From: a virus
Taxonomy: Duplodnaviria > Heunggongvirae > Uroviricota > Caudoviricetes
Direction: 5' to 3' (one strand)
Length of the DNA stretch: 41,123 bases
Virus record (IMG/VR): IMGVR_UViG_2565956719_000013
The notes beneath the pieces were generated by a model. It saw only the letters and a list, made by a program, of their open reading frames with translations. It did not search any database and had not been told where the DNA came from. Shown one piece after another: positions 9,373 through 28,818 of the stretch. Position numbers and translations under genes: made by a program. The stretch's first letter is position 1, and each line of letters opens with the position of its first letter.

Positions 9373-9546
9373 TTACCCAGTAAAAATCAGAGGCCTCCCC
9401 TCAATAAGGCTTGCAACAAGAACTATTCCCTGCACAACAAAGATGAACCAGCAAATAGCTTGAGTCTGAGGGTTAAGAAAATATTTGTAGCGGTCAATAA
9501 ATAACAACCCACCAGAAATTATCACACTCAAAATAATTAAAAACAC
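9373..9546 (-). CDS. small 2-TM membrane peptide, hypothetical (not in ORF track)
   Basis: GTG start 9546 after GGAAG; 57 aa hydrophobic; stop TAA 9375-9373. Confidence 0.3.
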   Translation of the reverse strand: MFLIILSVIISGGLLFIDRYKYFLNPQTQAICWFIFVVQGIVLVASLIEGRPLIFTG

Positions 9547-9555: not shown

Positions 9556-12030
9556 TTATTGCGGAGTGACATCCTGAGGTCGCCACCAGTATGTCTGATT
9601 AAACTCTTTCTTCGAACGTTGCTCCATTTTACGCAAATAGCCTGGTGAAAAATACTCCTGCATCTGGTTCAAGATCATATGATCGAGAGCCGCCTTTAAG
9701 TACCAGAGATTCGCACCTGGCATCAAACCTTTCCCCAGCTTCACCAGATCACCACCAGTCTGCTCACTCTTCCCTTCCACAGCATTTAACGGTATGCCCT
9801 GAGCAATCTTCACTACGTCATCAACCAGACCAGCTACCGGGCCAAGCATCGACGCCAGCGCGCCGCTTCCGTACCTAGTGTGATCTGACAATAAAAAGTC
9901 ACCGTAAAGGCCAAGGCCACCACCTTTCAGTAGAGCACCAAGCCAGAATTTTGCGGCACCTTCTCCTGTCATCTCTCGAGGATTACGACCAGACGCAAGG
10001 TCGTTAAGTTGCTGCGACAAAGCGCCAAGAATGGTCGTACTGGCAATAAACGTCGCAATATATGCCGCACGCCCACCAGCAGACGGCATACCCATAGCGC
10101 GTGACCAGTGACGCATAACAACCGAGATAGGGAACGATTTAAACAGGAAAACACGTCTCGTTAATTCACCTTTCCATGTTCCACGCTGAATACCAGAACC
10201 GGTTATCAGTTGCTCACGTGCTCCCGGTGTAATAACAGCCATATCAACTTCTTCAGTTACGGCACCGAGCAGTTTACGCATTGCCTCAAATTTCACTCGT
10301 TCAGGCTCACCAAGATGTTTAACTGCTGAATCAGGGATACGCATAATGCTTTCCGGTGTCAGCATCGTATTATTACCGTTCCCCCAGTCCTCCTGTTGCG
10401 CCAGCTTCCATACGCTCCAGTCTGTGTCAGTAATCCCTTTGCTTTTCAGGATACGAAAATCAGAGTCATCGAGGCTACGAAGGTCTGGTGTCCGTGACAC
10501 TACTTCTCCCAGGCTTCCCATCATGGTTACGCCATAGGCGCGCTTGTGCGCATCTGACCATGCTGTAAGCCCACTGGCACGCATTACGGCCGTTGCCGCC
10601 CAACGAGACACTGACGGCCCCATATTATCCATCGCCCAGCGGTTAACGCTGCCAAGTAGAGATTCCATCGCCAGACCAGCGCGGCGCGCCCGCGCAAGTT
10701 CTGTACGGTTCGTTGGGTCCATAGCTTCAAGCTGGTTGCGGAATAACTGGTTCATTGGAAGGTTGGTAACCTTCGCAGACAGATACATGGTTCCAAGATC
10801 AGAGAACGATGACAGCAACGCGGATCCGAGTCTGCTGGCAACCAGCCAGTTGCGGATATTGTCAGACCATCGCGCGATGTGCGGATTCGCTACAGGCTGT
10901 GTCTTTCCGGAAATAAAGTTGTACAGATTCTCTGTGTTGTTCGCCAGCCGCTCGACTTTACCGGTTTTACTCGGGTTAGCTGTTGCCGTTTCTGCCTTCA
11001 CCTGATCAAGAAGAGAGCGGAAAACATGATCGGGGTTTGGGCCATATGTTTCCACCAGTGCAATATCTTTACTGATACCTTCAAGGTGACCGACCATGAT
11101 TTCCCATAGAGAGCGATCGCCATAAAGTTGCTGATATTGCAGATAGGAATCTGCATCTTTGAAATGTATCTGTCGTGATGCATTACCACGGTTAGCACGT
11201 GCGCCGGAAATTCGCATTCCGGTATCAGTAAGCTTATTCAGCCCACCAGTAGCGATCGTGTTATAAGCCTCTCCAAGAAATGCAGACAACTCGGCATCGT
11301 TCATCAGTTGTCCATCGGCTCGGGTATAATATTTGCGATCCAGCTTACCTATAACATCGCTAACCCATTTATCTTTTGATACCGCCCCAACCTTTTCCAT
11401 AGAATGATGTTGAGGGATCCCCCAGTTTTCGAGATAGCCAATGTCCCCACCAGCATCATTAAACCGGCGGCGCAGCAGCTCTGTAACTTCTCTCCACGCC
11501 TTAGCACCTTTTCTTGCTTTAGCATTGCCAGTATTTTGCCCTCGCATTTCATATACCAGATCACGCACGCCAGCTTCATCTTCAAACAGGCCAAAAAAGC
11601 GAGGATCAACTGCTTCAAATGCCTCCTGCAATTGACTCAATGCATAATCACGAGTGGCTTTTGTTCTGGACTCAACAGAGAGGAAATTCGATTTACCGTC
11701 TGCATTAAAAGCAATAGTACGGTTAAGAGCGCCAAGTTTCCCATCAGCCCCTTGATAGCTATTGATAAATTTATCCAATCTCTGACGTGCGGCTATAGTG
11801 AGGGCCACACGACGTTTCTTTAATGCCGCTTCTCGCTGTAATTCTTCAGATGCCAATTGTGCTGCTCGATATAGCCGCTCTGATTCGGAAAGTTGTCTCC
11901 ACGACATCGGGTCATCACGAGCAATGGAGCGCATATTTCGATAAATGCGGTCTTCAATGTTCTGTATTTCTCGCGCCGTTAACGTGCGCTGCGCCGCCTG
12001 CTGAACCGCTTGTATACATTCCTGTCTCAT
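9556..12030 (-). CDS. large internal virion / ejection protein
   Basis: 824 aa; GAGAGG RBS; position after two other large proteins matching T7 gp15/gp16-like core order; hydrophobic segments near C-terminus. Confidence 0.55.
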   Translation of the reverse strand: MRQECIQAVQQAAQRTLTAREIQNIEDRIYRNMRSIARDDPMSWRQLSESERLYRAAQLASEELQREAALKKRRVALTIAARQRLDKFINSYQGADGKLGALNRTIAFNADGKSNFLSVESRTKATRDYALSQLQEAFEAVDPRFFGLFEDEAGVRDLVYEMRGQNTGNAKARKGAKAWREVTELLRRRFNDAGGDIGYLENWGIPQHHSMEKVGAVSKDKWVSDVIGKLDRKYYTRADGQLMNDAELSAFLGEAYNTIATGGLNKLTDTGMRISGARANRGNASRQIHFKDADSYLQYQQLYGDRSLWEIMVGHLEGISKDIALVETYGPNPDHVFRSLLDQVKAETATANPSKTGKVERLANNTENLYNFISGKTQPVANPHIARWSDNIRNWLVASRLGSALLSSFSDLGTMYLSAKVTNLPMNQLFRNQLEAMDPTNRTELARARRAGLAMESLLGSVNRWAMDNMGPSVSRWAATAVMRASGLTAWSDAHKRAYGVTMMGSLGEVVSRTPDLRSLDDSDFRILKSKGITDTDWSVWKLAQQEDWGNGNNTMLTPESIMRIPDSAVKHLGEPERVKFEAMRKLLGAVTEEVDMAVITPGAREQLITGSGIQRGTWKGELTRRVFLFKSFPISVVMRHWSRAMGMPSAGGRAAYIATFIASTTILGALSQQLNDLASGRNPREMTGEGAAKFWLGALLKGGGLGLYGDFLLSDHTRYGSGALASMLGPVAGLVDDVVKIAQGIPLNAVEGKSEQTGGDLVKLGKGLMPGANLWYLKAALDHMILNQMQEYFSPGYLRKMEQRSKKEFNQTYWWRPQDVTPQ

Positions 12031-12035
12031 TTAAT

Positions 12036-13838
12036 TTAACCTCTCAAGAAACACGCCACAGCGACATCAAACAGGCTGGAATCCTGTATTGCCTGCTCAC
12101 TTTCCATGTTCGCTTCATCCAGTACTTCACGCGCACTGCGCGATTGTGGATTACCATCATCATCCAGCACGGTGATTATCATGTCAGGTGATTCAAGCAG
12201 CGAGTCTTCAGCTATGCGCAGATCAATATCTCCTGCCGGATCTGCCATCATCTTTTGTTCTGCCTGTTGCAATATCTTACCGGGCTCAAAAGGAGCTACT
12301 TCGTCTGGCGTCCTGACCTCTGCTGTTTTATAGAATGAAACAGCCTGAGCATTAAGTTCACTTTCTGCCTGCTGTCTCCGAGCCAGTTCTGCTCGAGCTT
12401 CAAAAAACTGACCGCCAGGCTCGTGCGGTGCCAACGCGTTACGGGAAAATTCCAGGCGTTCTTGTGCCTGCCGGATTCGTTGGTCAATATCGCGAAGTCT
12501 GACCTGTTTATCTGATCGAGCACGAGACAAAGCTTTACCGCTGCCGGTTGGCTCTTCTGCAAGAATTTGTGCGCGCTGTTCAGTGAGATTTTCAATAATT
12601 CGTTGGCTATTAGCGATTTCATACTGGTAAACCTGTCTATCGCCACGCGGCAAAAGCTGCGCGGCCTGTTCTTCAAGCAACCGATTTTCTATAGCGCGCG
12701 CCGTTACTCCATCATCTACAGATGACAGAGCCTCATTAACTGCCTGAGACAGCAGACTCTTACGCCCAGGAATTTCACTGAAAGATGCAGGCTCAACAAT
12801 GCTGGCAACGTCTACAGGTCTCCCTTGGCTAACATCAGACATAGCTTTTCGCAGAGCCTGAATGTGAGAATTGCGCGAAAGCACGTTGATCGGCACGCCG
12901 GGAGAAATATCAATTTCAGCATGATGAGCGGCATTCGCCGCCAGTGCAGCATCGATATCAACTGGTGAAAAATTTGGTGCGTTTGTAGACTCGCCGCGAG
13001 AGTTAATAAATCTGCCGACACCACCAAACGCCACCCCAAGAACAGCATCAATAGCAATTGCCTGTCGATCCAACACATCATACTGGTTAGCCATTTCGCT
13101 ATAGCCACCATCACGAAGTGTTTTTGCAGTAAGCCCACGCTGTGCCATACCGAACGCAATATTTGTACCTGCGGCATAGGCAATATCTGGCGTTGCACGT
13201 ACTGCTGTTGCTGCGGCGCGTCGCACTGAACTCTCACCCGTCCGCGCAAGCTGAGCCGCCACACCTTCCGCCAGCGCACCACCAGCACGTAACCCGAGGC
13301 TCATAGGGATCAGTGTTCCGGCACCAGCAGTAATGCCCTGCACTAATCCCGCTTCCTGCGCCGTCCTGAAATCAACACCCTGTGCTGTCAGCCGTTCAAA
13401 CTCAGAAAAACCCTGTAGCGAAGTTACCGCCGCCGCACCTCCGACAGGACCACCGAGCGTTGTACCGACAACAGCCTGCCCGCCCATATCGAACAACCCA
13501 TAAAGAACCTGCCCGGCGGTTCCGGTTGTCGCGGCATCAGGCGTCAGCCGCTTAACCTGCTGCTCTGCTAGTTTTCTCTGCTCGGCAATGTATGAAACTG
13601 AAGTATCATTGAGCGAGGTGTTTTCGTTAATAAACTGAGCAATCGGGGATACGATTTTATCCATCCCTGCCCATAGCAACTGATCTGGCTTTGCCACCAG
13701 CCCGGAGTACAAACCAGACAATGCCGCTCCTACAGCATTGTCGAAAAAACCAACATCGCTGTTAAAGCCCGCTGGATTTGATGCTGCTTCGTCAAGTTGC
13801 TGATTCTGGTTTACTGGATTAAGGCCAAAGTAACTCAT
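12036..13838 (-). CDS. internal virion protein (Gly/Ala-rich)
   Basis: 600 aa; GGAG RBS; ATGA overlap with upstream gene; Gly/Ala-rich N-terminal half. Confidence 0.5.
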   Translation of the reverse strand: MSYFGLNPVNQNQQLDEAASNPAGFNSDVGFFDNAVGAALSGLYSGLVAKPDQLLWAGMDKIVSPIAQFINENTSLNDTSVSYIAEQRKLAEQQVKRLTPDAATTGTAGQVLYGLFDMGGQAVVGTTLGGPVGGAAAVTSLQGFSEFERLTAQGVDFRTAQEAGLVQGITAGAGTLIPMSLGLRAGGALAEGVAAQLARTGESSVRRAAATAVRATPDIAYAAGTNIAFGMAQRGLTAKTLRDGGYSEMANQYDVLDRQAIAIDAVLGVAFGGVGRFINSRGESTNAPNFSPVDIDAALAANAAHHAEIDISPGVPINVLSRNSHIQALRKAMSDVSQGRPVDVASIVEPASFSEIPGRKSLLSQAVNEALSSVDDGVTARAIENRLLEEQAAQLLPRGDRQVYQYEIANSQRIIENLTEQRAQILAEEPTGSGKALSRARSDKQVRLRDIDQRIRQAQERLEFSRNALAPHEPGGQFFEARAELARRQQAESELNAQAVSFYKTAEVRTPDEVAPFEPGKILQQAEQKMMADPAGDIDLRIAEDSLLESPDMIITVLDDDGNPQSRSAREVLDEANMESEQAIQDSSLFDVAVACFLRG

Positions 13839-16348
13839 TGCGGAATATCTCCGGAGAATCTCTGACGCTTCTGTGTCAGATCAAGAACAACAGGAGAACC
13901 ATCATCTTTCAGCAGATAACCAGTACCAAGTTTCACCAGGTACTGACTATCGCCGTAACTTTGCAAACCATACTGACTAGGCGGTGTTTTTATCCCGGTG
14001 CCGACCACTTGTTCATTCCAAGCCTGATTAACCTGCTTATCGAATTGCTCTGCAGACATTCCCCACGGCAAAAGGACATTCCCCATTCCGTTATAGTCAT
14101 GCACGCCACCTGTAGCTACGTTAACAGCCTGCTTCCAGATATCAGTGTCAATTTCGCCTGATATCACGCCTTTTTTCGCCATCACACCAGCGTAATAGTC
14201 CTTTGCGATCTCGTATGCCATTGATGCCCCCTGAGCATCACCAGCAAATGCATCCTTCACCATGTCAGAAAACTCAAGGCGAAGATCAGCATCTTTAGGC
14301 ATCGGAATACCTTTCGCATCATCAGTACCTTTACGAGCCGCCGCGCCAGTAAGAATTGTCTGCGCAGCGGTTTCAGGAGACACGGAAACATCCGGATTAA
14401 ACCAGTTTTTTTCTGCCAAAATACCACCAGGCTTGTCCATCAGTATCCCGGCAACGGCAGCAGATGGAGCGTTGGCACTGATCTGCTGTAGTGCTGACAT
14501 ATACACCTGCCCACCACCAGTGCTCTGCCTGATGGTATCGAGATATGCTGCCTGTAGGGAAACTGGAGCATCACGAAAGAAAACACCGATCTGATTGGCC
14601 TCGTCTTTGGAAAAGAACGTCAGTGGAGTGCCATATGACTTAGCAAGGTCACTGACCTGAGCGGAACGCAAGGCAACGCTCTGTCCAAAGTTATCCTTAT
14701 TGCTCATGTCGATAGGCTTTGTCTGTCCGGAGGCAAGAGAGAACTGCACAGGATCCGACTGCCGCTGCTTTATCACCTGATTTGCAGCCGAAACAACGTT
14801 GTCATAAAGAGCTGCGCGTGCCGCATACCCCTCCCCTGTTTCACCAGTATCCGGGCGTAATTGCTCAACATATGCTGTAATGCTGCTTGTCGGCATGTTG
14901 CGGAAAGAGCCTATATACTGTCCGGCGATCTGCGTATTCTTAAACTCGGTATATCGCAGGTTTCCTTCTCTGACTCCATAAGCTGCAATAAAATCATCCT
15001 CACCAGGTGGGTTAGGAAATTCAACGCCCCGCATATACGCAGCTGTCGCATCGCGAACCTGGCTGTCAATCATCGTTTTATATTCAGCCTGCTGCTGCCG
15101 ACGCAGTTGATCCGCCTGTCGCATAAAACTTGCCTGCGCCTCAGGAGATGCCGCATCGAATGCTGCATTACCGGTATAGCGTTTGGTGTTGGTTGGAATT
15201 GTTGATAAACCAAGTGCTGCACTGACACCAGCAGTTAACTGCTGATCACTGTATGGCTGGCTACCGTTCTCATGATGAATAATGGCTGCACAAAGCGCCT
15301 TCAGGGTATCAGGATTTGATGCATCGAGAGGCTCATCAGCAGAAACGCCAAGTTGTTCGCACACTGATTTGATATACGACATAGTGTCATTTTTATCAGT
15401 GGGCGGTGCCCAGCGATTAATTATCTCGCTGACGGTATCGATACCCTGCCGCTGATACGACATCAGGTTCCGCCCTAATGCACGAATCCCGTGTTCAGGT
15501 GTTTCGAATTTAGCAAATCGACCATCATCACCGGTCTGGCCTACCCACGGATTAGTTTTGCTGTATTCGAGATTTCCTGGGTTATTGTTGCGTATGCCAC
15601 GGGCACGATCGGAATAGCTACTATCTGCTACAGCACGGCGAGCTCCAGCAGCAGTATCACTTAACTCGCCATTACTTTGGATGAATGCGGTCGCATTGTT
15701 TGCCGACCACTGGGACAATGCAGCATCAGCAACCTTCTCTTTAAACTCGATTTTCTTGGCCTGGATTTGCTCGTCACTCCAGCCATGTGCAATGCCGTAA
15801 TCCTCAATTTGCTGGAAAGTTTGCTTATTAGCCAATACGTATGCGGCGTTGTCGCCATACAATGCTGCGGCATTTTTACCATTGTTCAGCAGCGTAGCCT
15901 GAAACTGGCCTTCTTCGTAGGCATTTATTTGCCCTATCTCGTGCCGCCCTGCCTGCGTAGTGAACTGAATGCGCTGCTGCTGCGCCTGCTGCATGAAAGC
16001 ATTACGAGCCTGTTCATCCGGCAGCGACATAGCCAGTTGTTCGACCTGAGCATCAAACTGCTGCGTATACTCCTGACCTTTTCCAATAGCATTTTTCCCT
16101 TTCAGGTTAAGCAATCCTGTTTCAGGATTATTCAGCAGATCACTGCTTATCTGACTGAGGTTAAGAGATGCCTCCTGAGCCAGAGCGATATTGGCACGCT
16201 GTTTTGCCTGACCAAAAACATCAATTGCCTCTGTCCCTGCCCGAACAAAAGCATCACCAATACCTGGCTGAGAAAACGTCTGCAAGCCTGCTGACTGAAC
16301 TCCACGGCTCTGAACCTGACGGCCGGATACTGTTGGTACGACTGGCAT
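13835..16348 (-). CDS. large internal virion protein
   Basis: start moved to ATG 16348 (GGAGG RBS, TAATG overlap with upstream stop); contains GIRNNNPGNL motif of unverified significance. Confidence 0.55.
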   Translation of the reverse strand: MPVVPTVSGRQVQSRGVQSAGLQTFSQPGIGDAFVRAGTEAIDVFGQAKQRANIALAQEASLNLSQISSDLLNNPETGLLNLKGKNAIGKGQEYTQQFDAQVEQLAMSLPDEQARNAFMQQAQQQRIQFTTQAGRHEIGQINAYEEGQFQATLLNNGKNAAALYGDNAAYVLANKQTFQQIEDYGIAHGWSDEQIQAKKIEFKEKVADAALSQWSANNATAFIQSNGELSDTAAGARRAVADSSYSDRARGIRNNNPGNLEYSKTNPWVGQTGDDGRFAKFETPEHGIRALGRNLMSYQRQGIDTVSEIINRWAPPTDKNDTMSYIKSVCEQLGVSADEPLDASNPDTLKALCAAIIHHENGSQPYSDQQLTAGVSAALGLSTIPTNTKRYTGNAAFDAASPEAQASFMRQADQLRRQQQAEYKTMIDSQVRDATAAYMRGVEFPNPPGEDDFIAAYGVREGNLRYTEFKNTQIAGQYIGSFRNMPTSSITAYVEQLRPDTGETGEGYAARAALYDNVVSAANQVIKQRQSDPVQFSLASGQTKPIDMSNKDNFGQSVALRSAQVSDLAKSYGTPLTFFSKDEANQIGVFFRDAPVSLQAAYLDTIRQSTGGGQVYMSALQQISANAPSAAVAGILMDKPGGILAEKNWFNPDVSVSPETAAQTILTGAAARKGTDDAKGIPMPKDADLRLEFSDMVKDAFAGDAQGASMAYEIAKDYYAGVMAKKGVISGEIDTDIWKQAVNVATGGVHDYNGMGNVLLPWGMSAEQFDKQVNQAWNEQVVGTGIKTPPSQYGLQSYGDSQYLVKLGTGYLLKDDGSPVVLDLTQKRQRFSGDIPQ

Positions 16349-16893
16349 TATAATCCTCCGGGTAATCTGGTTCCTGCTGCTGCCCCGATTGGCGCAGGGG
16401 TGCTTTGAGTAAACGGACTCCACGTCCCACCAAACATCTGGTACGCACCGTATGCCTTCAGAGGCGCAGTGAGCAATGTTGTTGCTGCTCCCACATTCCC
16501 CTGTTTACGGGCTGAACTGGCTTCTGCTTTATAGTTGGCAGCCTGAACCTGATAACCGTAAGCCTCGCGTTGCGCGTTATTCACCGTCGTCAGAGAATCA
16601 AGAGCGCCAAACTGGGCAGTGTCGCCAAATATATCCAGCGCGTTACCTGTAGATAAATCAGCGCCGGTAGCCCCCATTGTCGCCGCCTGTGTACCAAGCC
16701 GCTGTCGGGTCTCTCTGCGCCGTTGCTCAGCTTCAGCGTTACCTCTGTTTATTGCATCATTTGCCTGAGCTGTGGCTATATCTGTGTTCGCTTCTGCAAC
16801 CTTCGAGACATACTTTCCCTGTTGGTACTGGGTGTATGCCTGAATGCCACTCATGGCGAGCATTGCGCCACCAGCAATAACCGGATCGCACAT
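16348..16893 (-). CDS. small virion protein, hypothetical
   Basis: GGAGAG RBS; 181 aa Ala/Gly/Gln-rich; TAATG coupling both sides. Confidence 0.5.
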   Translation of the reverse strand: MCDPVIAGGAMLAMSGIQAYTQYQQGKYVSKVAEANTDIATAQANDAINRGNAEAEQRRRETRQRLGTQAATMGATGADLSTGNALDIFGDTAQFGALDSLTTVNNAQREAYGYQVQAANYKAEASSARKQGNVGAATTLLTAPLKAYGAYQMFGGTWSPFTQSTPAPIGAAAGTRLPGGL

Positions 16894-17357
16894 TATTTTC
16901 TCTCCATGTGAAATCTGTGGAAATTAAGACCAAGAGCACCATAAGGCGCGGCTTCTTCAAGCCTGAATCCAAGCCAGTGCAGCCATGCTTTGGCAACATG
17001 GTTTCGCTCGTCGACGTAGTTTTCCAGGCGCGGATAAACTGCCAGCATCTGCTGCAATACAGGGCGGCAGTGGCGAAGAAATGTCTTCTGATATTTTTCA
17101 ATACGGCTGGTTCCTACCAGCCAGGGCGTACCATTGCCACCGATCATTGACGCCGGAGATACGCCAAACATGGTTACCAGTTCTCCGTTCGCAAATCCTG
17201 ACCAGGCCATAGTCGCAGTGCGAAGACCAACACGCAGCGCATCTTCGGTAGTCATCAGCGATACCGCATACAGTTCGTCAATATCAGCCTGACGAACATC
17301 CGGCAAAATCATCTGAAGATGCTCTTCGGTAGCGGGAATAATTTGAACGTCAATCAT
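16893..17357 (-). CDS. hypothetical virion/assembly protein
   Basis: GGGGGA RBS; 154 aa; position equivalent to T7 gp13/gp14. Confidence 0.45.
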   Translation of the reverse strand: MIDVQIIPATEEHLQMILPDVRQADIDELYAVSLMTTEDALRVGLRTATMAWSGFANGELVTMFGVSPASMIGGNGTPWLVGTSRIEKYQKTFLRHCRPVLQQMLAVYPRLENYVDERNHVAKAWLHWLGFRLEEAAPYGALGLNFHRFHMERK

Positions 17358-19828
17358 CAGAATCCCCCAACAGTAAGGCGAGGAATAACGGCAAGAACAG
17401 ACAGCGGCAACGGGTCAAGCTGACGGATTTTTACACGTCCGTTTTTGCCCCAGTTACTGTCCAGTTTCACTTCTACTTTTCCGGTAGCATCATCAACAGG
17501 ATCATCGTAGAACTCGAATTCACGCTGTGGATATTCGTACCATTTACCGCCGGGCGTAGTCGCCCAGATGCCGCGACTGGCATTCACAACCAGAGTAACG
17601 GACGGGATCACCTGTTTTTTGTCCAGCAGCGTTTCCTGTCCGTTAATGTTGATATCCAGTGTTTCGAATTCAGCAGTTATTGGCAGGCCGATGTGCACTA
17701 CAGCCCCCGGTGATTCCAGCGTGACGGCACCTCCGGAAACCACTTTCTGTGGTTCCACGTTCGCATCAGAGAGAATGTTTACGGTCTGGCCTTCAAGATG
17801 AGACAAGCCGCCAAATGTCCGGCGCGCCATCTGCCAGTTCGTGGTGGCCACATTCCTGAGGGATGGCGGGACGTTCCTGTTAGCACGAACCACTACAGCG
17901 GTATTGCTGGTTACAGAAATAATGTCGCAACGTAATTCTTTTGACACCTCATCGCCAGTATCAGGATCAGTTCCGGTATAAGGGAACTGTAGTTGCGCGC
18001 CGACATCACTACTGGTGAAGTACGCACCACCAGAAACACTGATTGTATATTCCGCGCGGTAATCCCATTCGCCAGAACCACCAGTGATAATCATCGTTCT
18101 GTCAGACGTATTTCTTCCATCATAGCTAAGGCCAGAATCAACAAAGAAAGCATCTTCATCGCTGGTAAATAAACGGCTGGACAGTCGCTCGATGTATCTC
18201 ACTGTTTGCCCGTTAACGGTTCGGTTAACGACGAAATACACCGCATCTTCATTGCCTTCGCTGATACTGCATGTGCTTTCATATTTTCCGGTACTGGATT
18301 GTGGTGCCCATGCAAAAACCTGCTGATCACGCAAATAGGTCATCACCAGTAATTTACCGTCATCACGGATGCAGAAGGCGCTGGAGTAAGGGACTATTGA
18401 GAAGCACCAGTCAACAATGCTGTGCTTCTGAAAAAGATGATTGGCAAGGATAGTAAGGTCGTTCCCCTGATAGCCGTCAACATCGAATGAGTAGGCCAGA
18501 TCACGGACAACACTGCCTTTCTCCTGGACGAACAGAGCAATATTCGCCACGGCAATTGGTGGGACATTGCTCGAGCCATTTGATCCCTGAGAGCTGAATG
18601 CAAATGATGATGGGGTAAGCACTTTGTTCTGGTCGCCAGTGATGACGTACTCACCTCCGGAAGTCAGCGCCACCAGCGAACCAACATCAATCAGGTGACG
18701 GATCTCATTAACCTGACGCCCGGCATAGGTGTAGATAATTCTGTCGTCATCCTGCGTAGGATTGCTTTTGCCAAAATCCTTATAATCCCCGGTACGGCTG
18801 GCCCAGATAGTCTGAGGAAACGCAGTCGATGCGGCGAAGTAAAGACGTTGTTGATAATAAACAACAGTGCCAGGATAACCATTAACACTGTTCCAGGCAT
18901 ATTTAGCCCATTTATAGCTGGCATTATCCTCGCCAACTACCTGCGAAGGGATATAGGAAATCACCTCGGCAGTTGCAGTAGTTCCATTTGCAGCAGTGAT
19001 ACGGGCAATGCCAAAACCACTGTGCAGATATTCCCACTCAATGCCAGTATCATCATCACCGGATCCGCCCCAGCCATCCCATGATGTGCCTTCTGTATGC
19101 GAAGGGCGCAAAGTACCTGTTTTGCCTGCTGTAACGGCGCGATAGTAGTTACTGTCTGCACGGCGAATATCGCCAATCGACGTACTCTTACTGGTTTCCC
19201 ATACCGGCACAGAATCCACTGCAGGCTGTTCCAGATAGAACAATTTGCCTACCTGCTCCGCGCCAAAAATAGAGGCGCTTGCCGTTAGCGTAATTGTCCC
19301 GGTGCTGGCGCTGGCATAAACCGTCACTGACTCGTCAATATTGATATCTTCAAATGGCCCGTTCTTCGTTACCACATCAACCAGTTGCCAGTTGTCATGC
19401 GCATAGCGGCGCAACTCTTTCGGCGGGTATGCCGGATGAACCAGCGTAAGCACGTCTGCGCTTTGCGTGAATTTAATTCGGAACAGATCGGCTTCAGTAT
19501 ATGGCGTGGAAATTTCATAAATAACATTGCTGCTGTTCAGCACCAACGCACCATCTTTGATAACGCGCATGTACTGGTGTCCGAACTCCAGAGCATAAGT
19601 CTGAACCGTCGAGAACTGGAACGGGATCAGGCGGCATTTCCGATTTGGGTATTTGGCGGCACCGACAAAACGCGTACCAGGTCGATTCTCAACTCCGCCA
19701 TACTGCCGCACGATAAAGTTATCGCACTTGCGCAATGCCACCTGGTACTTCGCCATGTCAATACGACCGTACAACGACGGTCCAATCTCACCACCGGCAA
19801 AGCTGGGCTGGATCCAACTGATAGCCAT
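17357..19828 (-). CDS. tail tubular protein B-like (nozzle)
   Basis: 823 aa; GAGGT RBS; N-terminal FAGGEIGPSLYGR resembles T7 gp12 N-terminus; follows adaptor-like gene. Confidence 0.55.
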   Translation of the reverse strand: MAISWIQPSFAGGEIGPSLYGRIDMAKYQVALRKCDNFIVRQYGGVENRPGTRFVGAAKYPNRKCRLIPFQFSTVQTYALEFGHQYMRVIKDGALVLNSSNVIYEISTPYTEADLFRIKFTQSADVLTLVHPAYPPKELRRYAHDNWQLVDVVTKNGPFEDINIDESVTVYASASTGTITLTASASIFGAEQVGKLFYLEQPAVDSVPVWETSKSTSIGDIRRADSNYYRAVTAGKTGTLRPSHTEGTSWDGWGGSGDDDTGIEWEYLHSGFGIARITAANGTTATAEVISYIPSQVVGEDNASYKWAKYAWNSVNGYPGTVVYYQQRLYFAASTAFPQTIWASRTGDYKDFGKSNPTQDDDRIIYTYAGRQVNEIRHLIDVGSLVALTSGGEYVITGDQNKVLTPSSFAFSSQGSNGSSNVPPIAVANIALFVQEKGSVVRDLAYSFDVDGYQGNDLTILANHLFQKHSIVDWCFSIVPYSSAFCIRDDGKLLVMTYLRDQQVFAWAPQSSTGKYESTCSISEGNEDAVYFVVNRTVNGQTVRYIERLSSRLFTSDEDAFFVDSGLSYDGRNTSDRTMIITGGSGEWDYRAEYTISVSGGAYFTSSDVGAQLQFPYTGTDPDTGDEVSKELRCDIISVTSNTAVVVRANRNVPPSLRNVATTNWQMARRTFGGLSHLEGQTVNILSDANVEPQKVVSGGAVTLESPGAVVHIGLPITAEFETLDININGQETLLDKKQVIPSVTLVVNASRGIWATTPGGKWYEYPQREFEFYDDPVDDATGKVEVKLDSNWGKNGRVKIRQLDPLPLSVLAVIPRLTVGGF

Positions 19829-20433
19829 CAGGACAACCTCGCAATGGTAAACTCGTCAACCGGTGGCAGTGGTTCCTGTGATTCATTCTGGCTATGCGAG
19901 CCAGCACTAAGAATCACGCGATTGTACATATTGAGGGCAAACGTACCGAGGTCTGCATTCCCAGTCAGCGCCATGTTAATAGCTGCCGCAAGACGCCAGG
20001 CCAACGCCTCCATAAAAATGGCATCAAACATGTTCACATCTGAAACGCGAGAGACATACTTGAGCCATGCCTGCGGCTGGTCTGTGTAGATCAACTTTCC
20101 TGTTCCGTTGGTGTCTGCACCAACTTCGTACTGAACGCGCATTGCTGCTGTTGGATTGCGTACACCAGGAAGCATAATTTCAGTAATGCGCAGACAATCG
20201 GACGGGTACTGATACGCATATTCCCAGTCAGGCGGTGGATTGCTCGTATCTGCAAGCGCCACGCGTTTGGTAGCAAAGTTCCAGTCAAAATCAGAAAGCA
20301 CAGCATCACGGCAGGCCTCAAAGTGCAGCGAACATTCCCCCGCTTCCTTGCTGGCTTCCGTCAGGCTGTTAATGCTGCGGCTATTGCCAATATTGGACAG
20401 CGCACGATTGCAGATCTCTACTACAGAGGCCAT
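19828..20433 (-). CDS. tail tubular protein A-like (adaptor)
   Basis: 201 aa, size and position of T7 gp11; GGGGGTGA RBS; ATGA overlap with next gene. Confidence 0.5.
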   Translation of the reverse strand: MASVVEICNRALSNIGNSRSINSLTEASKEAGECSLHFEACRDAVLSDFDWNFATKRVALADTSNPPPDWEYAYQYPSDCLRITEIMLPGVRNPTAAMRVQYEVGADTNGTGKLIYTDQPQAWLKYVSRVSDVNMFDAIFMEALAWRLAAAINMALTGNADLGTFALNMYNRVILSAGSHSQNESQEPLPPVDEFTIARLS

Positions 20434-20756
20434 TACTCACCCCCATTGCCGTACAGGGTTTCAGCCGCTGATTTTTCTACATCCCCGGAAACAGGAGCGA
20501 TCGCCATATCAGTGATCTGCAGATCGGCGCTGCGATTAACACCATCGTCAGTTTCTCTGGCAGACAGGCCTCGAATAACAGCTTTTGCAGTTATCATCAC
20601 TTCTGTTCCGACGCCCTGAGGTTGCGCCTTCAGCTTATTCAATGTGTCGTTATTAAGAGTGATGCACAGCCCCCACGGGTATTCATCGCGAGTTCTGGTT
20701 TCTCCGCTCTCATCCTGGTAGCTGTCAGTGCCGGTTTTGAGGTTTACGAGTTCCAT
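20433..20756 (-). CDS. hypothetical protein
   Basis: start moved to ATG 20756 (AGGAG RBS 5 nt upstream); 107 aa. Confidence 0.45.
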   Translation of the reverse strand: MELVNLKTGTDSYQDESGETRTRDEYPWGLCITLNNDTLNKLKAQPQGVGTEVMITAKAVIRGLSARETDDGVNRSADLQITDMAIAPVSGDVEKSAAETLYGNGGE

Positions 20757-20772
20757 ATACACTCCTGCAATA

Positions 20773-20790
20773 AAGGGGCCGAAGCCCCTT
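20773..20790 (-). terminator. intercistronic hairpin with UUCG tetraloop, possible attenuator
   Basis: minus strand AAGGGGC-UUCG-GCCCCUU followed by UUUAUUG, immediately before RBS of 20433..20756. Confidence 0.4.
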
Positions 20791-20806
20791 GTCGGATTCG
20801 CGAGGC

Positions 20807-21142
20807 TTACACGCCTAGTTCTTTACGCTTATCTGCGATCTTCTCGCGGAGCGTTTCGGCTTTAGCGTTATGGTGTGGCTTCTCGTTAAAGAGCAATTCG
20901 TACTCTTCACGGAGCTTATCCAGTTCACCATCATCTGACACATCGTTGATGATTTTGGTGCTGGTTGCTGCCATTGACACCTTTCCTGCAACTTTTGCTT
21001 TTGCCTGTCTGGCTGCATCGTTAACAGGTTCCAGTGCGCTACCAGGCTCACCTTCGTATTCGATTTCTGCCCCCTCCGGCCACAGTGTGTTATGGATATG
21101 AGAGAGGCGCAGAACGCGGTATCTTGGTTTCTCACCTGACAT
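20807..21142 (-). CDS. hypothetical protein
   Basis: start moved to ATG 21142 (AAGGTGA RBS); 111 aa, Lys/Glu-rich C-terminus. Confidence 0.45.
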   Translation of the reverse strand: MSGEKPRYRVLRLSHIHNTLWPEGAEIEYEGEPGSALEPVNDAARQAKAKVAGKVSMAATSTKIINDVSDDGELDKLREEYELLFNEKPHHNAKAETLREKIADKRKELGV

Positions 21143-21152
21143 CGATATCACC

Positions 21153-21590
21153 TTAACCAGTTACTTTTGAGCGGATCGGATACGGCGTATTGGCATCAAC
21201 ATCAAGACTGATACCAGCAGTGAATTCGCCAGCCGTTAGCGGGCCAGTTGCGACGGAGTAGTTAACACGCAGATATCGCTGAACACCGGCAGGCACCTTT
21301 GCAGAAACAACTCGTTTACCTGCTGTCAGGGCGGTCTTTGCCAGTGCACCACTATCATAAATAGTGGTCCATGAGCTGTTATCCTCACTCGTCTGCAACT
21401 GGATGTTTACAGTTGCATCACCGCTTGCTGCGGCGGCTGTGTTAACCAGCGCCCAAAACTCAAGCGGGTAACCCACGCCGATATCACGACGTTTTCCGTC
21501 AATTGGACCGAGATCGATTACGTCAGTAGAAGCCGCGGTATCAGTTACCGCCTGTGCTTCGGAGAACATCAACAGTTTGTCGGTGATCAT
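21153..21590 (-). CDS. hypothetical head-associated protein
   Basis: GGAGAAAG RBS; 145 aa; directly after capsid gene. Confidence 0.5.
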   Translation of the reverse strand: MITDKLLMFSEAQAVTDTAASTDVIDLGPIDGKRRDIGVGYPLEFWALVNTAAAASGDATVNIQLQTSEDNSSWTTIYDSGALAKTALTAGKRVVSAKVPAGVQRYLRVNYSVATGPLTAGEFTAGISLDVDANTPYPIRSKVTG

Positions 21591-21641
21591 CTTCTTTCTC
21601 CATTAGTGGGTCTGTTACGACCCACAGGTTAATAACAGGCG

Positions 21642-22634
21642 TTACACCACGCGGGCTTCTGTTTCCAGAAGCGCATCAGTTTCACGGATTGGTACACCAC
21701 GGAATGAAGTCCACCACTCGCCTTCTGTCTCTTTTACGCTGATAGCCAGAGATGTTTTCTCCAGAGACTGCAGATCAAGAGCCTGGCCTACAGTGCGGTT
21801 CATGTAGAACACCGGGCGGCCCATGCCACGGTTTGGAATGCGATGCAGTGCTTTAACCATCAACTTCGCAATATTTGCGGCAGAGGATGGTTCTGAAAGA
21901 TTGCTGACATCGATGTTTGCAATGCGAACAACATAACGCCAGTCACGCAGAGCAAGTCCGTTATCCCATTTGTAATGGGTGCGATAGCCTTCGTACTTGC
22001 CGCCATTAGCATCTTCCAGTGTCACCTGGCCTTTATCTTCCATCTGGATGCCAGCCTTCTGCCCTTTCGGGAAGATGCCATGCACGGTGTTTTCGCCCCA
22101 CACCACTAACCAGATTGAGGTGTTATCTGTACCCGTGCCACCAGCATCAATGATGTTCTGAGCATTACCCGCAGACAGGCTGGAATAGCGGGAGGACAGT
22201 CCCATAAACTGCTGAGGATTAACGCTGGAATCACCATAAAACAGCGTCTGCGCCATCTGCTGATTCATCGCTTCAATAAATGCGCGGTCTTCAGAAAGGC
22301 GGAATTCGGCGGTATTGCCGTTCAGATCAGCCAGTGACTTATCGACTTCCGCATAGGTTTCCAGCATGCCAACGGAATCGGTTACCTGCACTGTGGTTGA
22401 TTTGCTTGGCTGTACGCCATAGTTCAGCAAACGCCAGGTAGCTGAAGGTAAACCAGAACGAATGGTGGTTCGGTGTCCGGTAGGAAGGTTCCCTTCGACA
22501 AAAGGCATATCCTGAAGGATCGGGTTAGTTTGACCGAGAAGCTCGATAATCTTATCGACTTTCCCGTTTGGATCGACGCGCTTACCCCAGTCAGCCAGCG
22601 TTAGCGCAGTTAAGCCTTTAACAGCCATTGTCAT
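21642..22634 (-). CDS. major capsid protein (by position and size)
   Basis: 330 aa; GAGAGGAA RBS; follows scaffold-like gene; stem-loop between it and next gene. Confidence 0.55.
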   Translation of the reverse strand: MTMAVKGLTALTLADWGKRVDPNGKVDKIIELLGQTNPILQDMPFVEGNLPTGHRTTIRSGLPSATWRLLNYGVQPSKSTTVQVTDSVGMLETYAEVDKSLADLNGNTAEFRLSEDRAFIEAMNQQMAQTLFYGDSSVNPQQFMGLSSRYSSLSAGNAQNIIDAGGTGTDNTSIWLVVWGENTVHGIFPKGQKAGIQMEDKGQVTLEDANGGKYEGYRTHYKWDNGLALRDWRYVVRIANIDVSNLSEPSSAANIAKLMVKALHRIPNRGMGRPVFYMNRTVGQALDLQSLEKTSLAISVKETEGEWWTSFRGVPIRETDALLETEARVV

Positions 22635-22642
22635 TTCCTCTC

Positions 22643-23338
22643 TTATTTGCCATAGAGCACTTCGGCCGCACTACGCTGGCCTTCATTACTACCGGTGACC
22701 ATGCCATCTTCAGACATCGCCTTTCCGATTTTCACGAACGTTTTGACCAGATCAGGGTGATTACCCAGCCCGGTGGTGTTCAGATATTCTTTGAGTTCAG
22801 GTGTCCCGAACTGGTCAAGCGCACGCTGTGCGGCGCTAAGGTTAGAAATCAACTTGTCGCCACCGATTTCTTTGTCAGCTTTTACATCAGCAGCCCACTG
22901 CTCGGTTGTTTTCTGCCAGGCTTCTGCCTGGCGCTGCTGCACACCTGCCAGAATCTTCGGATAAGCATCAACCAGCTTTTGCGCTTGCTCGTTGGTCAGG
23001 TTTAGTTCTCGCGCCACCGGCTCGAATTCCTTCAACGCTTCTGTATCCAGCTCTACGCCTTCGGCAGCCTGAAACTCGTACTTCTCAGGCGCACCCTCTG
23101 GTTTATCGCCGTCCTTTTTTTCATCCTGCTTATCGTTTTCAGGCTTTTTGTCATCAGCAGGTTTATCGCCATCAGCAACAGGTTGTGGCTTATCACCTTC
23201 CAGTTGTGATGGATCACCAACTGGAGCAGGGTTATCACCTGCAGGCGCTGACGGTTCTGACGCAGCCGGAGCTGCTCCACCATCGACTGGTTGCTCATTG
23301 CAAAGACGGCGATACAGCAAACGCTCAAATAAATTCAT
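22643..23338 (-). CDS. scaffolding protein
   Basis: start moved to ATG 23338 (AGGAG RBS); acidic, low-complexity Pro/Asp/Lys-rich N-terminus then helical region; between portal and capsid. Confidence 0.55.
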   Translation of the reverse strand: MNLFERLLYRRLCNEQPVDGGAAPAASEPSAPAGDNPAPVGDPSQLEGDKPQPVADGDKPADDKKPENDKQDEKKDGDKPEGAPEKYEFQAAEGVELDTEALKEFEPVARELNLTNEQAQKLVDAYPKILAGVQQRQAEAWQKTTEQWAADVKADKEIGGDKLISNLSAAQRALDQFGTPELKEYLNTTGLGNHPDLVKTFVKIGKAMSEDGMVTGSNEGQRSAAEVLYGK

Positions 23339-23340
23339 GA

Positions 23341-23637
23341 TCACTCCTGTTCACTGGCCTCTTTGGCCATCTTCAAATACTGTTCAGGGCAATGCGCCAT
23401 AACGCGCTGAAACAGTTCAAGCGCCAGATTGCGTTGCCCCTCATTAAATGCCATTGCCATAGCGTCCATCGGTGAGATAGCGGAAAACACACGGCCTTTC
23501 TCCAGCACAGACCAGACAACGCGACGCCCCTGTTCACTGCTCATGACAAAGCGAATGTCATCAATTTCACGCTGCTCCATGTCACGTTGCTTACGGGCGT
23601 TTTCTTCTTTCAGTTGATCGTCTTCGTAATCTGTCAT
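23341..23637 (-). CDS. hypothetical protein
   Basis: 98 aa; ATGA overlap with portal stop. Confidence 0.45.
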   Translation of the reverse strand: MTDYEDDQLKEENARKQRDMEQREIDDIRFVMSSEQGRRVVWSVLEKGRVFSAISPMDAMAMAFNEGQRNLALELFQRVMAHCPEQYLKMAKEASEQE

Positions 23638-25313
23638 TGTGATTGCCCACCCTGACCACTAACTGCATTCGCCATAGCTGACAAAACACTCGGATCCGAA
23701 GTTTTAGCTTCGCTTAGCGTCTTGGCGCCCTGTGCCGCCGCCATCCCCATCGCCATCATTTGTTGCTGCTGTTGCTGCTGTGCCCGTTGCTGGCGAGCCT
23801 GCTCAACCTGTTCCTGCGGAACAATGACGGTTGGAGACACTCCGGACATATCAGCGAATGCATCGATCGCCTGATCAACGTTGAGTTTGTCGAGAGCTTC
23901 TGGTTTCGCTTGCGCAAGTTGACCAATGAAGTTAACCGTGGACGCCAGACTGGACAGGCCGATAGACTTCTGCGCCTGAGCCATGACGGAAATGTATTCG
24001 ACCTTCAGGGGCATACCTTCCATCACGTCTGGCGGTGGCGGCAGCATGTTTTTACGCACCATCATCGAGAAAGAGCGGTCAATGAGAGGATTAAGACATT
24101 CGTCGTTCAGACGCTCCAGAACCGGCCCCAACATCAGAAGTTTTTCTTCTTTCATTTCGATCACCGCTTCAACAGGCATCGAGCGGGTATTGATGTTCTG
24201 CAACATCATGAACAGATCGACAAAGTAGGCGCTGTTAATGATTTGACGAGTGTCCTGAATGTCTGCCACCAAATCTGCTGTACTGGGGTTAACCAGATAA
24301 GCAGGCCTGAAACCATCCTGACCAGTAATCTGATCGATATACGTGATGTCGCCAGGAAGAAGGGAGGCACGCTGATTCTTGAGGGAAGTCGGAGCAACCA
24401 TCGGCGGATTGGTGGCTTTATCAATCAACTGCGACTTGCGCTTCTGGAGAAGCTGCAATGCCTTAACAGGTCCAAGCGCCAGCATACCCGGGCATGATGA
24501 TCCATAAACATCTTCGCCGTTAACTTCCCAGCGCGGAGCCATAATTGGAAACTCATCGAATCCGGACTCACGCAACAACTTGTCGTTATCGCCACCAACC
24601 TCGTAATAAACCGATTTGAATGGCTTGTTCTTGCTATCCAGCTTCGATGTATCGCGGTCAATGTTCGGGTAAACCGAATGCATCACTTCAATCCACTTCT
24701 CGTAGGTTCCGCTTTCCCACATGCTTTTTACGGATTCGCTGACGTTATTTAGCCCGAACTCCTGAACAAGCTGACGAACAGTCATAGAGAACTTGCGAAA
24801 ACAGGTGTCCACACTGCCACGAGGTGAGTTAGCCAGGTAGTAACTGCCTATCGGGAATGGCATTGTGCGAATGATGTCCTCGTCATCCTCCAGCACTGCC
24901 ATTGCACCAGTGCTGTATGTGCCGAGGCTTCCGTATAACTGCGGCAGCGACTGATAGAGATTCGACTTATTGAACATATCGTTCATGCGGTTCTGCACCG
25001 CCTCAAGCCACAACTTAACAGGGCCATAATCCATCATTTCAGGATCTGGCGTAGCCAGGCGAAACCACGGACGCGCGGGGCTTGTGATGCCTGACATCAT
25101 GCCGCTGGCGAGAGTGCGCGCCGCCATAGTCCCGGTCGAATCAATAATGCGTGTATTGCGTCGATCGTTACGGTTGGCCTCAGAAGTCAGAAAGCGGGAA
25201 CCACGCGGGTTGATGTAATCACTCAACTCGCGCCAGTGCGGCTCGAACGACTGACGCTCGCTTTCAAGTTGTGCGAACTGTTTGTTCAATCGCTCTTTAG
25301 TTGTTTCCGCCAT
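23634..25313 (-). CDS. portal (head-tail connector), T7 gp8-like
   Basis: 559 aa; GGAG RBS; C-terminal QQQQQMMAMGMAAAQGAKT resembles T7 gp8 C-terminus; follows terminase. Confidence 0.8.
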   Translation of the reverse strand: MAETTKERLNKQFAQLESERQSFEPHWRELSDYINPRGSRFLTSEANRNDRRNTRIIDSTGTMAARTLASGMMSGITSPARPWFRLATPDPEMMDYGPVKLWLEAVQNRMNDMFNKSNLYQSLPQLYGSLGTYSTGAMAVLEDDEDIIRTMPFPIGSYYLANSPRGSVDTCFRKFSMTVRQLVQEFGLNNVSESVKSMWESGTYEKWIEVMHSVYPNIDRDTSKLDSKNKPFKSVYYEVGGDNDKLLRESGFDEFPIMAPRWEVNGEDVYGSSCPGMLALGPVKALQLLQKRKSQLIDKATNPPMVAPTSLKNQRASLLPGDITYIDQITGQDGFRPAYLVNPSTADLVADIQDTRQIINSAYFVDLFMMLQNINTRSMPVEAVIEMKEEKLLMLGPVLERLNDECLNPLIDRSFSMMVRKNMLPPPPDVMEGMPLKVEYISVMAQAQKSIGLSSLASTVNFIGQLAQAKPEALDKLNVDQAIDAFADMSGVSPTVIVPQEQVEQARQQRAQQQQQQQMMAMGMAAAQGAKTLSEAKTSDPSVLSAMANAVSGQGGQSQ

Positions 25314-28775: not shown

Positions 28776-28782
28776 AACCACC

Positions 28783-28814: not shown

Positions 28815-28818
28815 ATGC

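Follow-up and report, generated by a model that had tools for sequence, protein, structure and literature searches.

Morphogenesis genes of an epsilon15/phiV10-type prophage of Escherichia coli and their relation to phage T7

The IMG/VR virus record IMGVR_UViG_2565956719_000013 (Caudoviricetes), a stretch of 41,123 nucleotides (nt) referred to here as the window, contains between positions 9556 and 25313 an unbroken run of 14 minus-strand open reading frames (ORFs), which leads from a portal gene to the gene for the last internal virion protein. A preliminary description of this region, made from the letters alone, had proposed a T7-like head and tail architecture carried by a temperate phage with lambda-like regulation. 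Here, the run is assigned with high confidence to the late morphogenesis operon of an intact prophage of the phiV10/ZX5 type, genus Uetakevirus (epsilon15 group), located at the 3′ end of guaA in Escherichia coli. The link to T7 holds for the tail machine, namely portal, adaptor, nozzle, gp13/gp14-type proteins and the N-terminus of the tailspike, and it fails for the coat protein, the assembly protein and the terminase.

Genes of the late operon

The structural and packaging genes are the following, with protein lengths in amino acids (aa).

28176..28853, minus strand: terminase small subunit (Pfam PF03592, E 3e-29; 89% aa identity to phiV10 and ZX5)
26704..28179, minus strand: terminase large subunit, non-T7 type (phrog_2, E 1.1e-52; 94% aa identity to epsilon15 gp2)
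25962..26038, plus strand: tRNA-Arg (TCT), between terminase and portal genes (ARAGORN; Rfam 73.3 bits)
23634..25313, minus strand: portal, T7 gp8 family, 559 aa (Pfam PF12236, E 1.6e-187; 99% aa identity to ZX5 and phiV10)
23341..23637, minus strand: Bbp19-like small protein, 98 aa, homologue of epsilon15 gp5 (Pfam PF25181, E 3e-17)
22643..23344, minus strand: head-assembly protein, 233 aa, labelled 'protease' or 'peptidase' in databases (phrog_458 'protease', E 2.2e-110)
21642..22634, minus strand: major capsid protein (MCP), 330 aa, epsilon15 GP7/BPP-1 family (Pfam PF20911, E 2.1e-149)
21153..21590, minus strand: Bbp16-like capsid cement protein (Pfam PF21190, E 7.3e-47)
20807..21151, minus strand: 114-aa protein, homologue of epsilon15 gp9 and phiV10p12 (phrog_590, E 3.9e-61; 99% aa identity to phiV10)
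20433..20762, minus strand: capsid staple protein, epsilon15 gp10-like (Pfam PF21628, E 1.2e-51)
19828..20433, minus strand: tail adaptor with predicted T7 gp11 (tubular tail A) fold, 201 aa (PDB Carin-1 connector 8ck1_E, E 1.5e-26)
17357..19828, minus strand: tail nozzle, probably related to T7 gp12 (tubular tail B), 823 aa (PDB Carin-1 'Tail Nozzle' 8ck1_A, E 4.5e-217)
16893..17357, minus strand: internal virion protein A, 154 aa, T7 gp13 counterpart (phrog_308, E 9.2e-63)
16348..16893, minus strand: internal virion protein B, 181 aa, T7 gp14 family (Pfam PF24072 T7_gp14, E 2.6e-7, 31.2 bits, cut-off 27)
13835..16348, minus strand: internal/ejection protein, 837 aa, with a central peptidoglycan-cleaving domain at aa 249-398 (PDB 9vvp_L and 7q47; PHROG)
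12036..13838, minus strand: virion protein, 600 aa, epsilon15 gp16 homologue (phrog_1145, E reported as 0)
9556..12030, minus strand: virion structural protein, 824 aa, epsilon15 gp17 homologue (phrog_684, E reported as 0)
9373..9546, minus strand: small membrane-protein ORF closing the late operon at the phiV10p21 position (ORF list; phiV10 annotation 'putative integral membrane protein')
3396..6515, minus strand: tailspike, 1039 aa, K1 endosialidase (Pfam PF12217, PF12219, PF12195, PF12218 and PF13884)

The order within the run is portal, 98-aa protein, 233-aa protein, MCP, three small capsid-associated proteins, adaptor, nozzle, 154-aa and 181-aa proteins, and finally the proteins of 837, 600 and 824 aa. 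On the strength of their profile matches and their near-identity to proteins of sequenced phages, all 14 ORFs are real genes; the strongest profile matches in the span had E-values of 1e-187 to 1e-253, and PHROG E-values lay between 4e-86 and a reported 0. A search of the window proteins against NCBIfam gave no useful names. The sizes of 201 and 823 aa given in the preliminary description for the adaptor and nozzle pair were exact. The span was found to hold the whole portal gene rather than its C-terminus, and the tailspike, whose N-terminus had been placed inside it, lies outside.

The terminase small subunit gene opens the late operon just upstream of the run. For the large subunit, the RefSeq note on epsilon15 gp2 records an HHpred match to the Sf6 terminase, and the domains of T7 gp19 were not found in the window terminase when window and T7 proteins were searched against Pfam. 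The tRNA-Arg (TCT) is present in phiV10 and ZX5, too. An 83-aa ORF (25968-26219), equivalent to phiV10p04, overlaps this tRNA on the opposite strand and may be spurious.

The portal matched the portal of Carin-1 in the PDB (8ck0) with an E-value of 6e-179. The best PDB match of the coat protein was BPP-1 (3j4u, E 9.5e-129), followed by Carin-1 (8cjz, E 1.2e-87) and epsilon15 gp7 (3j40, E 2e-85). According to RefSeq, the cement protein of epsilon15, gp8, is matched by HHpred to the cementing protein of BPP-1, and the epsilon15 gp10-like protein is named 'capsid staple protein' by PGAP in E. coli genomes. The shell module at 20433-22634, comprising coat, Bbp16-like, 114-aa and gp10-like proteins, was 36-43% identical to that of epsilon15, whereas the flanking portal, adaptor and nozzle were 81-88% identical. 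Therefore, a block exchange of the shell genes has taken place within the genus.

For the 837-aa protein the start at 16348 is that of phiV10p18. Its lytic domain matched residues 3-146 of Gp29 (PDB 9vvp_L, E 2.1e-38) and the endolysin 7q47 (E 2.1e-17), and its PHROG matches were to transglycosylase and endolysin families. The 600-aa protein had no Pfam or PDB match and, by the position of its gene, is a probable ejection protein. The 824-aa protein had no PDB match.

Identity and integration site of the prophage

Megablast of positions 9556-25313 returned vB_EcoP_ZX5 (ZX5) at 98.6%, phiv142-3 at 98.3% and phiV10 at 98.0% nt identity, with 100% coverage each; further matches were PAS61, HEMP4, the O157 typing phages 9 and 10, Tyrion (82%) and epsilon15 (75% over part of the span). 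Seventeen virion and packaging proteins were compared with their ZX5 counterparts, and all of them aligned over the full length, without frameshifts or stops, at 88.9-100% aa identity (16 of them at 97.4-100%, the terminase small subunit at 88.9%). Against phiV10, the same set without the tailspike was 89.3-99.7% identical. The whole prophage was collinear with ZX5, to which its overall identity was 85%, against 80% for phiV10; the ratio of identical bases to prophage length was 0.853 for ZX5, 0.795 for phiV10 and 0.369 for epsilon15. By the rule of thumb of the International Committee on Taxonomy of Viruses (ICTV), a phage belongs to a genus if its genome-wide nt similarity to a member is about 70% or more, and the prophage exceeds this value with both ZX5 and phiV10. 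Moreover, a BLASTN synteny map and the annotation tables of ZX5, phiV10 and epsilon15 were used for comparing gene order, and the Uetakevirus order was recovered: terminase small and large subunits, portal to internal proteins, tailspike, lysis genes, att, integrase, early-left genes, repressor and replication genes. Nothing was found that contradicts the assignment to Uetakevirus. ZX5 is a viable, temperate, short-tailed podophage with an endosialidase tail protein (PMC9782041), and from the protein identity of 97-100% to this phage the particle encoded here would likewise be a short-tailed podovirus.

The ends of the prophage are defined by the following features.

1163..1179, minus strand: att core (attR), prophage end, exact match to the ZX5 att core ATTGAGTGGGAATGATT
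1-516 and 532-1071: host genes yfgH and yfgI, flanking the prophage
39867..41123, minus strand: tyrosine integrase of P4-type architecture (Pfam PF13356, PF22022 and PF00589; 98.7% nt identity to the ZX5 integrase)

Homology to ZX5 stops at position 1163, where the att core begins, and 5422 of 5426 complete E. coli genomes carry yfgH and yfgI. With its att core and the flanking yfgH/yfgI, the prophage is consistent with the integration at guaA published for ZX5. The prophage is complete and lies at the 3′ end of guaA, in agreement with the att site described in the ZX5 paper, which also covers the repressor/antirepressor pair (PMC9782041). The far end of the window is the start codon of the integrase gene and, judged from ZX5, about 190 bp towards attL lie beyond it. 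A tyrosine integrase next to the att site (core at 1163-1179), one of the lambdoid features, is present. The phage record TL-2011b matched from window position 1 onwards as well and probably includes host flank.

Prophages of this epsilon15/phiV10 type are common in E. coli and of an already described kind; the adaptor-nozzle module is carried by 536 of the 5426 complete genomes. The host genomes of near-identical copies include that of a cerebrospinal-fluid isolate. One such copy is found in E. coli SF-468, where the flank is identical and the tail genes agree at 99.6%.

It could be argued that the structural genes belong to a defective or cryptic remnant and are no longer functional, since this copy is known from sequence alone and the window ends at the integrase start codon with attL outside. 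The full-length alignments of all 17 proteins to those of viable ZX5 speak against this, as do the intact integrase, repressor, antirepressor, replication and lysis genes and the presence of the att core. On account of the intact genes and the att core, this explanation was rejected as very unlikely.

The tailspike combines an N-terminal anchor of the epsilon15/Carin-1/T7 gp17 type (aa 1 to about 200) with a K1 endosialidase and a C-terminal chaperone, and 1033 of its 1039 aa are identical to ORF7 of ZX5. Residues 1-165 share 71.5% aa identity with epsilon15, and the N-terminus matched the Carin-1 spike anchor Dpo31 with an E-value of 5e-33. The endosialidase body (nt 3425-5817), on the other hand, is 99.7% identical at the nt level to the endosialidase of the P22-like phage CUS-3. 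The tailspike is thus a mosaic by its sequence matches, its receptor-binding module having been exchanged across lineages, and the prophage represents a K1-capsule-targeting variant of the kind found in extraintestinal pathogenic strains. The segment 3088-3395 between tailspike and lysis cassette is devoid of an O-antigen modification gene, in contrast to phiV10, which has its O-acetyltransferase gene (oac) at this place, and epsilon15 with its conversion genes. This absence fits a capsule (K1) rather than an O-antigen receptor.

The tailspike gene is located about 3 kb from the last internal-protein gene, and most of the gap is taken up by a plus-strand block of an antirepressor gene and its RNAs.

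7051-7127, plus strand: isrK-like (Hfq-binding) RNA (Rfam 67.7 bits, above gathering threshold)
7152-7235, plus strand: C4 antisense RNA (Rfam 66 bits, above gathering threshold)
7269-7994, plus strand: Bro-N antirepressor ORF (Pfam Bro-N, E 1e-19), directly downstream of the two RNAs

This module at 7051-7994 looks like the RNA-gated antirepressor modules of the P1 immI and Gifsy-1 IsrK type, as judged from the sequence matches. P22 keeps its immI between the ejection-protein genes and the tailspike, that is, at the same place. Together with the CUS-3-like endosialidase and the terminase of the Sf6/P22 type, this arrangement would suit a P22-like K1 prophage of the CUS-3 type in place of an epsilon15-like one. 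The CUS-3 match, however, is confined to the endosialidase body, the portal belongs to PF12236, adaptor and nozzle match those of Carin-1, LME-1 and T7, and over the entire structural span the identity to phiV10 is 98%. A P22-like identity is refuted by the portal family, the identity of the span to phiV10 and the protein identity to ZX5, and its probability is considered negligible.

Both RNAs are present, though unannotated, in the phiV10 and ZX5 records. No isrK or C4 match was obtained for epsilon15 at the gathering threshold.

Relation to T7 and proposed working of the particle

For the comparison with T7, its proteins were run through the same Pfam and PHROG libraries as the window proteins. 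T7 gp8 falls into the portal family PF12236 (E 2.8e-113), and portal and gp8 matched phrog_332 and phrog_449 reciprocally. T7 gp13 matched phrog_308 (E 1.1e-42), as did the 154-aa protein, and T7 gp14 belongs to PF24072 together with the 181-aa protein. Tailspike residues 1-210 and the N-terminus of T7 gp17 shared matches to phrog_1640, 27277, 2710 and 8460; PF03906 was not reported for the tailspike in Pfam at an E-value of 0.01 or better.

The adaptor is 100% identical in aa sequence to that of ZX5, and its AlphaFold model reached a pLDDT (predicted local distance difference test) of 87.4. Foldseek with this model returned the Carin-1 connector 8ck1_E (7.8e-17), LME-1 (2.4e-9) and T7 gp11 (7box_M, 1e-6, template modelling scores 0.59/0.60), followed by many adaptors of the T7 group, and epsilon15 gp11 is annotated in RefSeq with T7 tail tubular protein A as an HHpred match. 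The Pfam family Tube was not matched, and the link of the adaptor to gp11 is at the level of the predicted fold only. The nozzle shares about 45% identity with the Carin-1 nozzle of known structure, and its family is very large, with 18,307 cluster representatives reaching an E-value of 0.001 or better; Pfam Phage_nozzle was not matched. A profile of 32 nozzle sequences aligned residues 321-439 with residues 350-466 of T7 gp12 over 113 columns (hhalign E 8e-5, probability 61%) and also matched 'nozzle gp13' of PDB 23sh_T (E 5.4e-5). The gp12 alignment lies in the central domain, for which a strong match of hidden Markov models between epsilon15 gp12 and T7 gp12 has been published (PMC4819975). 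The assignment of the nozzle to the gp12 type from these alignments is weak but consistent. Thus, profile searches placed portal and nozzle, and the predicted fold placed the adaptor, with the gp8, gp12 and gp11 types, respectively, and not in a non-T7 lineage, so that the refuting outcome named in the preliminary description did not occur.

Several results weigh against this interpretation and the wider T7 relationship. Pairwise BLASTP and phmmer comparisons of the 17 virion proteins with T7 gp8 to gp19 gave nothing significant; only for the pairs 233-aa protein/gp9, 154-aa protein/gp13 and 181-aa protein/gp14 was the syntenic T7 partner ranked first, at E-values of 0.02-0.07 in a database of 12 sequences, which is a hint at most. 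An alignment of 36 adaptor sequences against T7 gp11 was negative (hhalign E 0.59), and the nozzle match to gp12 is a modest one. The AlphaFold model of the nozzle, built from a shallow alignment of sequences 82-90% identical with only close relatives among the homologues listed, had a pLDDT of 39 and was not used for fold search. With hhalign and shallow profiles, the family of the 600-aa protein showed no detectable similarity to T7 gp15, and the published link of the 824-aa family to T7 gp16 was not reproduced, the homologues listed for this profile all being at least 87% identical. Furthermore, the 233-aa protein is, as judged from sequence, a putative scaffold or a protease, and the prophage is known here from its genes alone.

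The published work extends further in this respect. Hardies 2016 assigned epsilon15 gp17 to IVP-D, the extended family of T7 gp16, using joined hidden Markov models, and a gp15 homologue could not be confirmed (PMC4819975). In the same study the epsilon15 group (gp12 as tubular tail B, gp17 as IVP-D) was placed with T7 in a 'transient tail' homology group, and its terminase and capsid proteins were grouped with those of siphoviruses (PMC4819975). The internal core of epsilon15 forms a stack like that of T7 according to a review on ejection proteins (PMC8954989).

Prophage and T7 share the order portal, assembly protein, coat, adaptor, nozzle, gp13-like protein, gp14-like protein, large internal proteins, fibre or spike and then lysis genes. 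In contrast to T7, the prophage is temperate with integrase and repressor, has genes on both strands and lacks an RNA polymerase gene, and its terminase genes precede the portal gene. The coat protein belongs to PF20911 and T7 gp10A to the different family PF21703, and the families of assembly protein and terminase differ, too: the prophage had no match to the T7-type scaffold and terminase families PF05396 and PF22530 in Pfam, and the PHROGs in the comparison of coat, scaffold and terminase differ (212 for the window, 267 for T7). The 233-aa protein had no Pfam or NCBIfam family at all and lies outside the gp9 family PF05396. Additionally, the prophage has three extra small capsid proteins. 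Its large internal proteins number three, as against two in T7, and the lytic domain belongs to the first of them and not to the last. Neither the single-subunit RNA polymerase nor the T7-type coat, scaffold and terminase that characterise the Autographiviridae were found. The T7-like head and tail architecture of the preliminary description therefore stands for the tail machine and is overstated for the head. The run of large internal proteins in T7 order is present with its 837, 600 and 824 aa members, of which homology to T7 gp15 and gp16 could not be shown.

The layout might at first sight be explained by a recent, novel hybrid that arose when a lytic T7-like phage (Autographiviridae) recombined with a lambdoid prophage. 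Structural genes in T7 order do stand superficially beside integrase, repressor and lambda P, and the genome is mosaic, with a tailspike body 99.7% identical to CUS-3 and a shell module swapped relative to epsilon15. However, since all pairwise comparisons with T7 proteins were insignificant, the relationship must be ancient and not the result of a recent graft; coat, assembly protein and terminase belong to other types than those of T7, and the same layout is conserved in epsilon15, phiV10, ZX5, Tyrion and others and occurs in about 10% of complete E. coli genomes. A recent hybrid is effectively refuted, with almost no probability left to it. A T7-related portal, tail and ejection module on a temperate genome is instead the defining layout of the epsilon15/phiV10 group, for which it is already published (PMC4819975, PMC9782041).

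No phage RNA polymerase gene was found between the att core at 1163 and the integrase start codon, as already noted in the preliminary description: every ORF of at least 400 aa (1039, 862/837, 824, 823, 600, 559, 491 and 418 aa) has been assigned a different function. Therefore, the operon must be transcribed by the host RNA polymerase. A single leftward late transcript would run from the terminase genes through the gene for the last internal protein. The gp8-type portal would nucleate the procapsid, and a shell of HK97-fold coat protein of the epsilon15 GP7/BPP-1 type would be assembled with the 233-aa assembly protein and reinforced by the Bbp16-like and gp10-like proteins. A terminase of the Sf6/P22 type would then fill the head, and 12 gp11-fold adaptors and 6 gp12-related nozzle subunits would close the portal. 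Six trimeric tailspikes would dock via the gp17-type N-terminal domain, and their endosialidase body would degrade the polysialic acid of the K1 capsule. An internal core would be formed by the gp13-like and gp14-like proteins together with the 837-, 600- and 824-aa proteins; upon infection these would be ejected and bridge the cell envelope, with the lytic domain of the 837-aa protein cutting peptidoglycan. In this scheme stoichiometry, core formation, ejection pathway, packaging mode and the single late transcript are carried over from work on epsilon15, T7 and Carin-1. Observed directly were the identities of the genes, the families and folds to which their products are assigned, the synteny and the near-identity to viable phages.

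It is conceivable, though rather unlikely, that the ejection apparatus of the phiV10 lineage builds a trans-envelope channel organised differently from that of T7 gp14-gp15-gp16, because there are three large proteins instead of two, the lytic domain lies in the middle of the first, and no relative of the 600- and 824-aa proteins was detected in T7 or among solved structures. Such a channel, as well as the way in which all three large proteins relate to gp15 and gp16 of T7, would concern the whole lineage and not this window in particular.

Further modules and comparison with known phages

The genes for regulation, replication and lysis and the variable segment next to the run are as follows.

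34970-35554, plus strand: helix-turn-helix (HTH) repressor (Pfam HTH_3, PF01381, E 1.2e-9, and a weak N-terminal HTH)
34234-34497, minus strand: ORF in cro position (phrog_1081, unknown function)
33403-34218, minus strand: DnaT/HTH_36 replication initiator (DnaT E 1.2e-15; HTH_36 E 1.8e-10)
32621-33421, minus strand: lambda P homologue (Phage_lambda_P, PF06992, E 1.5e-56)
1290..3087, minus strand: lysis cassette of membrane protein, holin, GH19 endolysin and Rz-like spanin (Pfam PF16931, PF05449, PF00182 and PF10721)
8140-8772, plus strand: 210-aa ORF (phrog_1349, unknown function)
9064-9360, minus strand: 98-aa multi-pass membrane ORF, followed by a strong terminator-like hairpin (9038-9055)

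The repressor gene and the small ORF in cro position are divergently transcribed, so that the arrangement of a repressor/cro-like pair is present; for the small protein neither a Cro nor an HTH family could be recognised, and a Peptidase_S24 domain as in LexA/CI-type cleavage was not found in the repressor by Pfam search. In experiments with ZX5, the repressor blocked and the antirepressor promoted lytic growth (PMC9782041). Of the proposed O/P replication pair, P is borne out by the lambda P homologue, and the O position is occupied by the DnaT/HTH_36 initiator, for which Phage_rep_O was not matched in Pfam. The label 'lambda-like' is therefore only partly right and, like 'head', too broad: an HTH-only repressor with antirepressor and a DnaT-type initiator stand beside a lambda P homologue and an integrase. 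The integrase itself and the lysis cassette directly downstream of the tailspike, the latter collinear with phiV10 p27-p30, were found as described. RecE/RecT-like genes, an AlpA-type regulator and an MT-A70 methylase are also present. On the whole, the preliminary observations were largely right, and their interpretation was right for the tail machine.

A calcineurin-like metallophosphatase ORF (39085-39864, plus strand; Pfam PF00149, E 2.2e-15) adjoins the integrase gene at a place where phiV10 and ZX5 have a small DUF1382 gene; it had no match to a PADLOC defence family. The segment 8036-9500 is variable and absent from ZX5 and phiV10. P22 carries sieA at the corresponding position, and a role of this segment in superinfection exclusion is possible by analogy. 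Among the variable small genes, the known MT-A70 methyltransferase was the only defence gene reported by PADLOC.

The preliminary description re-derives the known epsilon15/phiV10 layout from raw sequence and adds nothing beyond the existing literature. Its practical value lies in annotation: most of these proteins are still called 'hypothetical' in E. coli genomes and can now be given names such as portal, adaptor, nozzle, gp13-like and gp14-like. The comparison with epsilon15-like and T7-like phages suggested at the outset places the prophage in the epsilon15/phiV10 group, near-identical to ZX5 and phiV10, with an ancient relation to T7 in the tail machine.

ZX5 (MW722083; Uetakevirus) shares with the prophage the collinear genome, the att core, the guaA site and the isrK/C4/antirepressor block. 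Non-homologous segments are located at 8036-8775, 8932-9500, 29233-30451, 30798-31559, 33152-34491 (an allele of the replication initiator) and 39212-39883, where the metallophosphatase gene of the prophage stands against the DUF1382 gene of ZX5. Under the 95% species rule of ICTV practice, the prophage would be a different species from ZX5 in the same genus.

With phiV10 (NC_007804) the prophage shares the 98.0% nt identity of the span, whose proteins are 96.6-99.7% identical, as well as the gene order from the terminase small subunit to the lysis genes, integrase, repressor and lambda P. The tailspike body of phiV10, however, targets the O157 antigen, so that the first 165 aa alone align (68%), and the fused RecE and RecT of phiV10 are two separate proteins in the prophage.

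Epsilon15 (NC_004775) is the type of the group, with a cryo-electron microscopy structure, and its internal core and transient tube have been described (PMC4819975, PMC8954989). It has the same gene order, with aa identities of 81% for the portal, 84% for the adaptor, 88% for the nozzle and 94% for the terminase large subunit, whereas the MCP is 43%, the cement and staple proteins are 36-42% and the last two large internal proteins are 28-31% identical. Its tailspike body is a different one.

The closest solved structures for portal, adaptor, nozzle, coat and tailspike anchor are those of Carin-1 from Cobetia (8ck0, 8ck1 and 8cjz) and LME-1 from Legionella (9efk), which differ in host, at identities of roughly 32-50%, and have unrelated receptor-binding spike bodies. 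LME-1 is a temperate element of T7-like morphology with proteins closest to those of Carin-1, which is also T7-like (PMC12407071). BPP-1 (3j4u) differs in its host, Bordetella, and resembles the prophage in the coat protein, for which it is the top PDB match, and in the Bbp16- and Bbp19-family proteins. It carries a tropism-switching retroelement. In Hardies 2016, BPP-1 is listed in the tail homology group of epsilon15 (PMC4819975). The layout of the prophage as such is kept by Tyrion, epsilon15, phiV10, ZX5 and many others.

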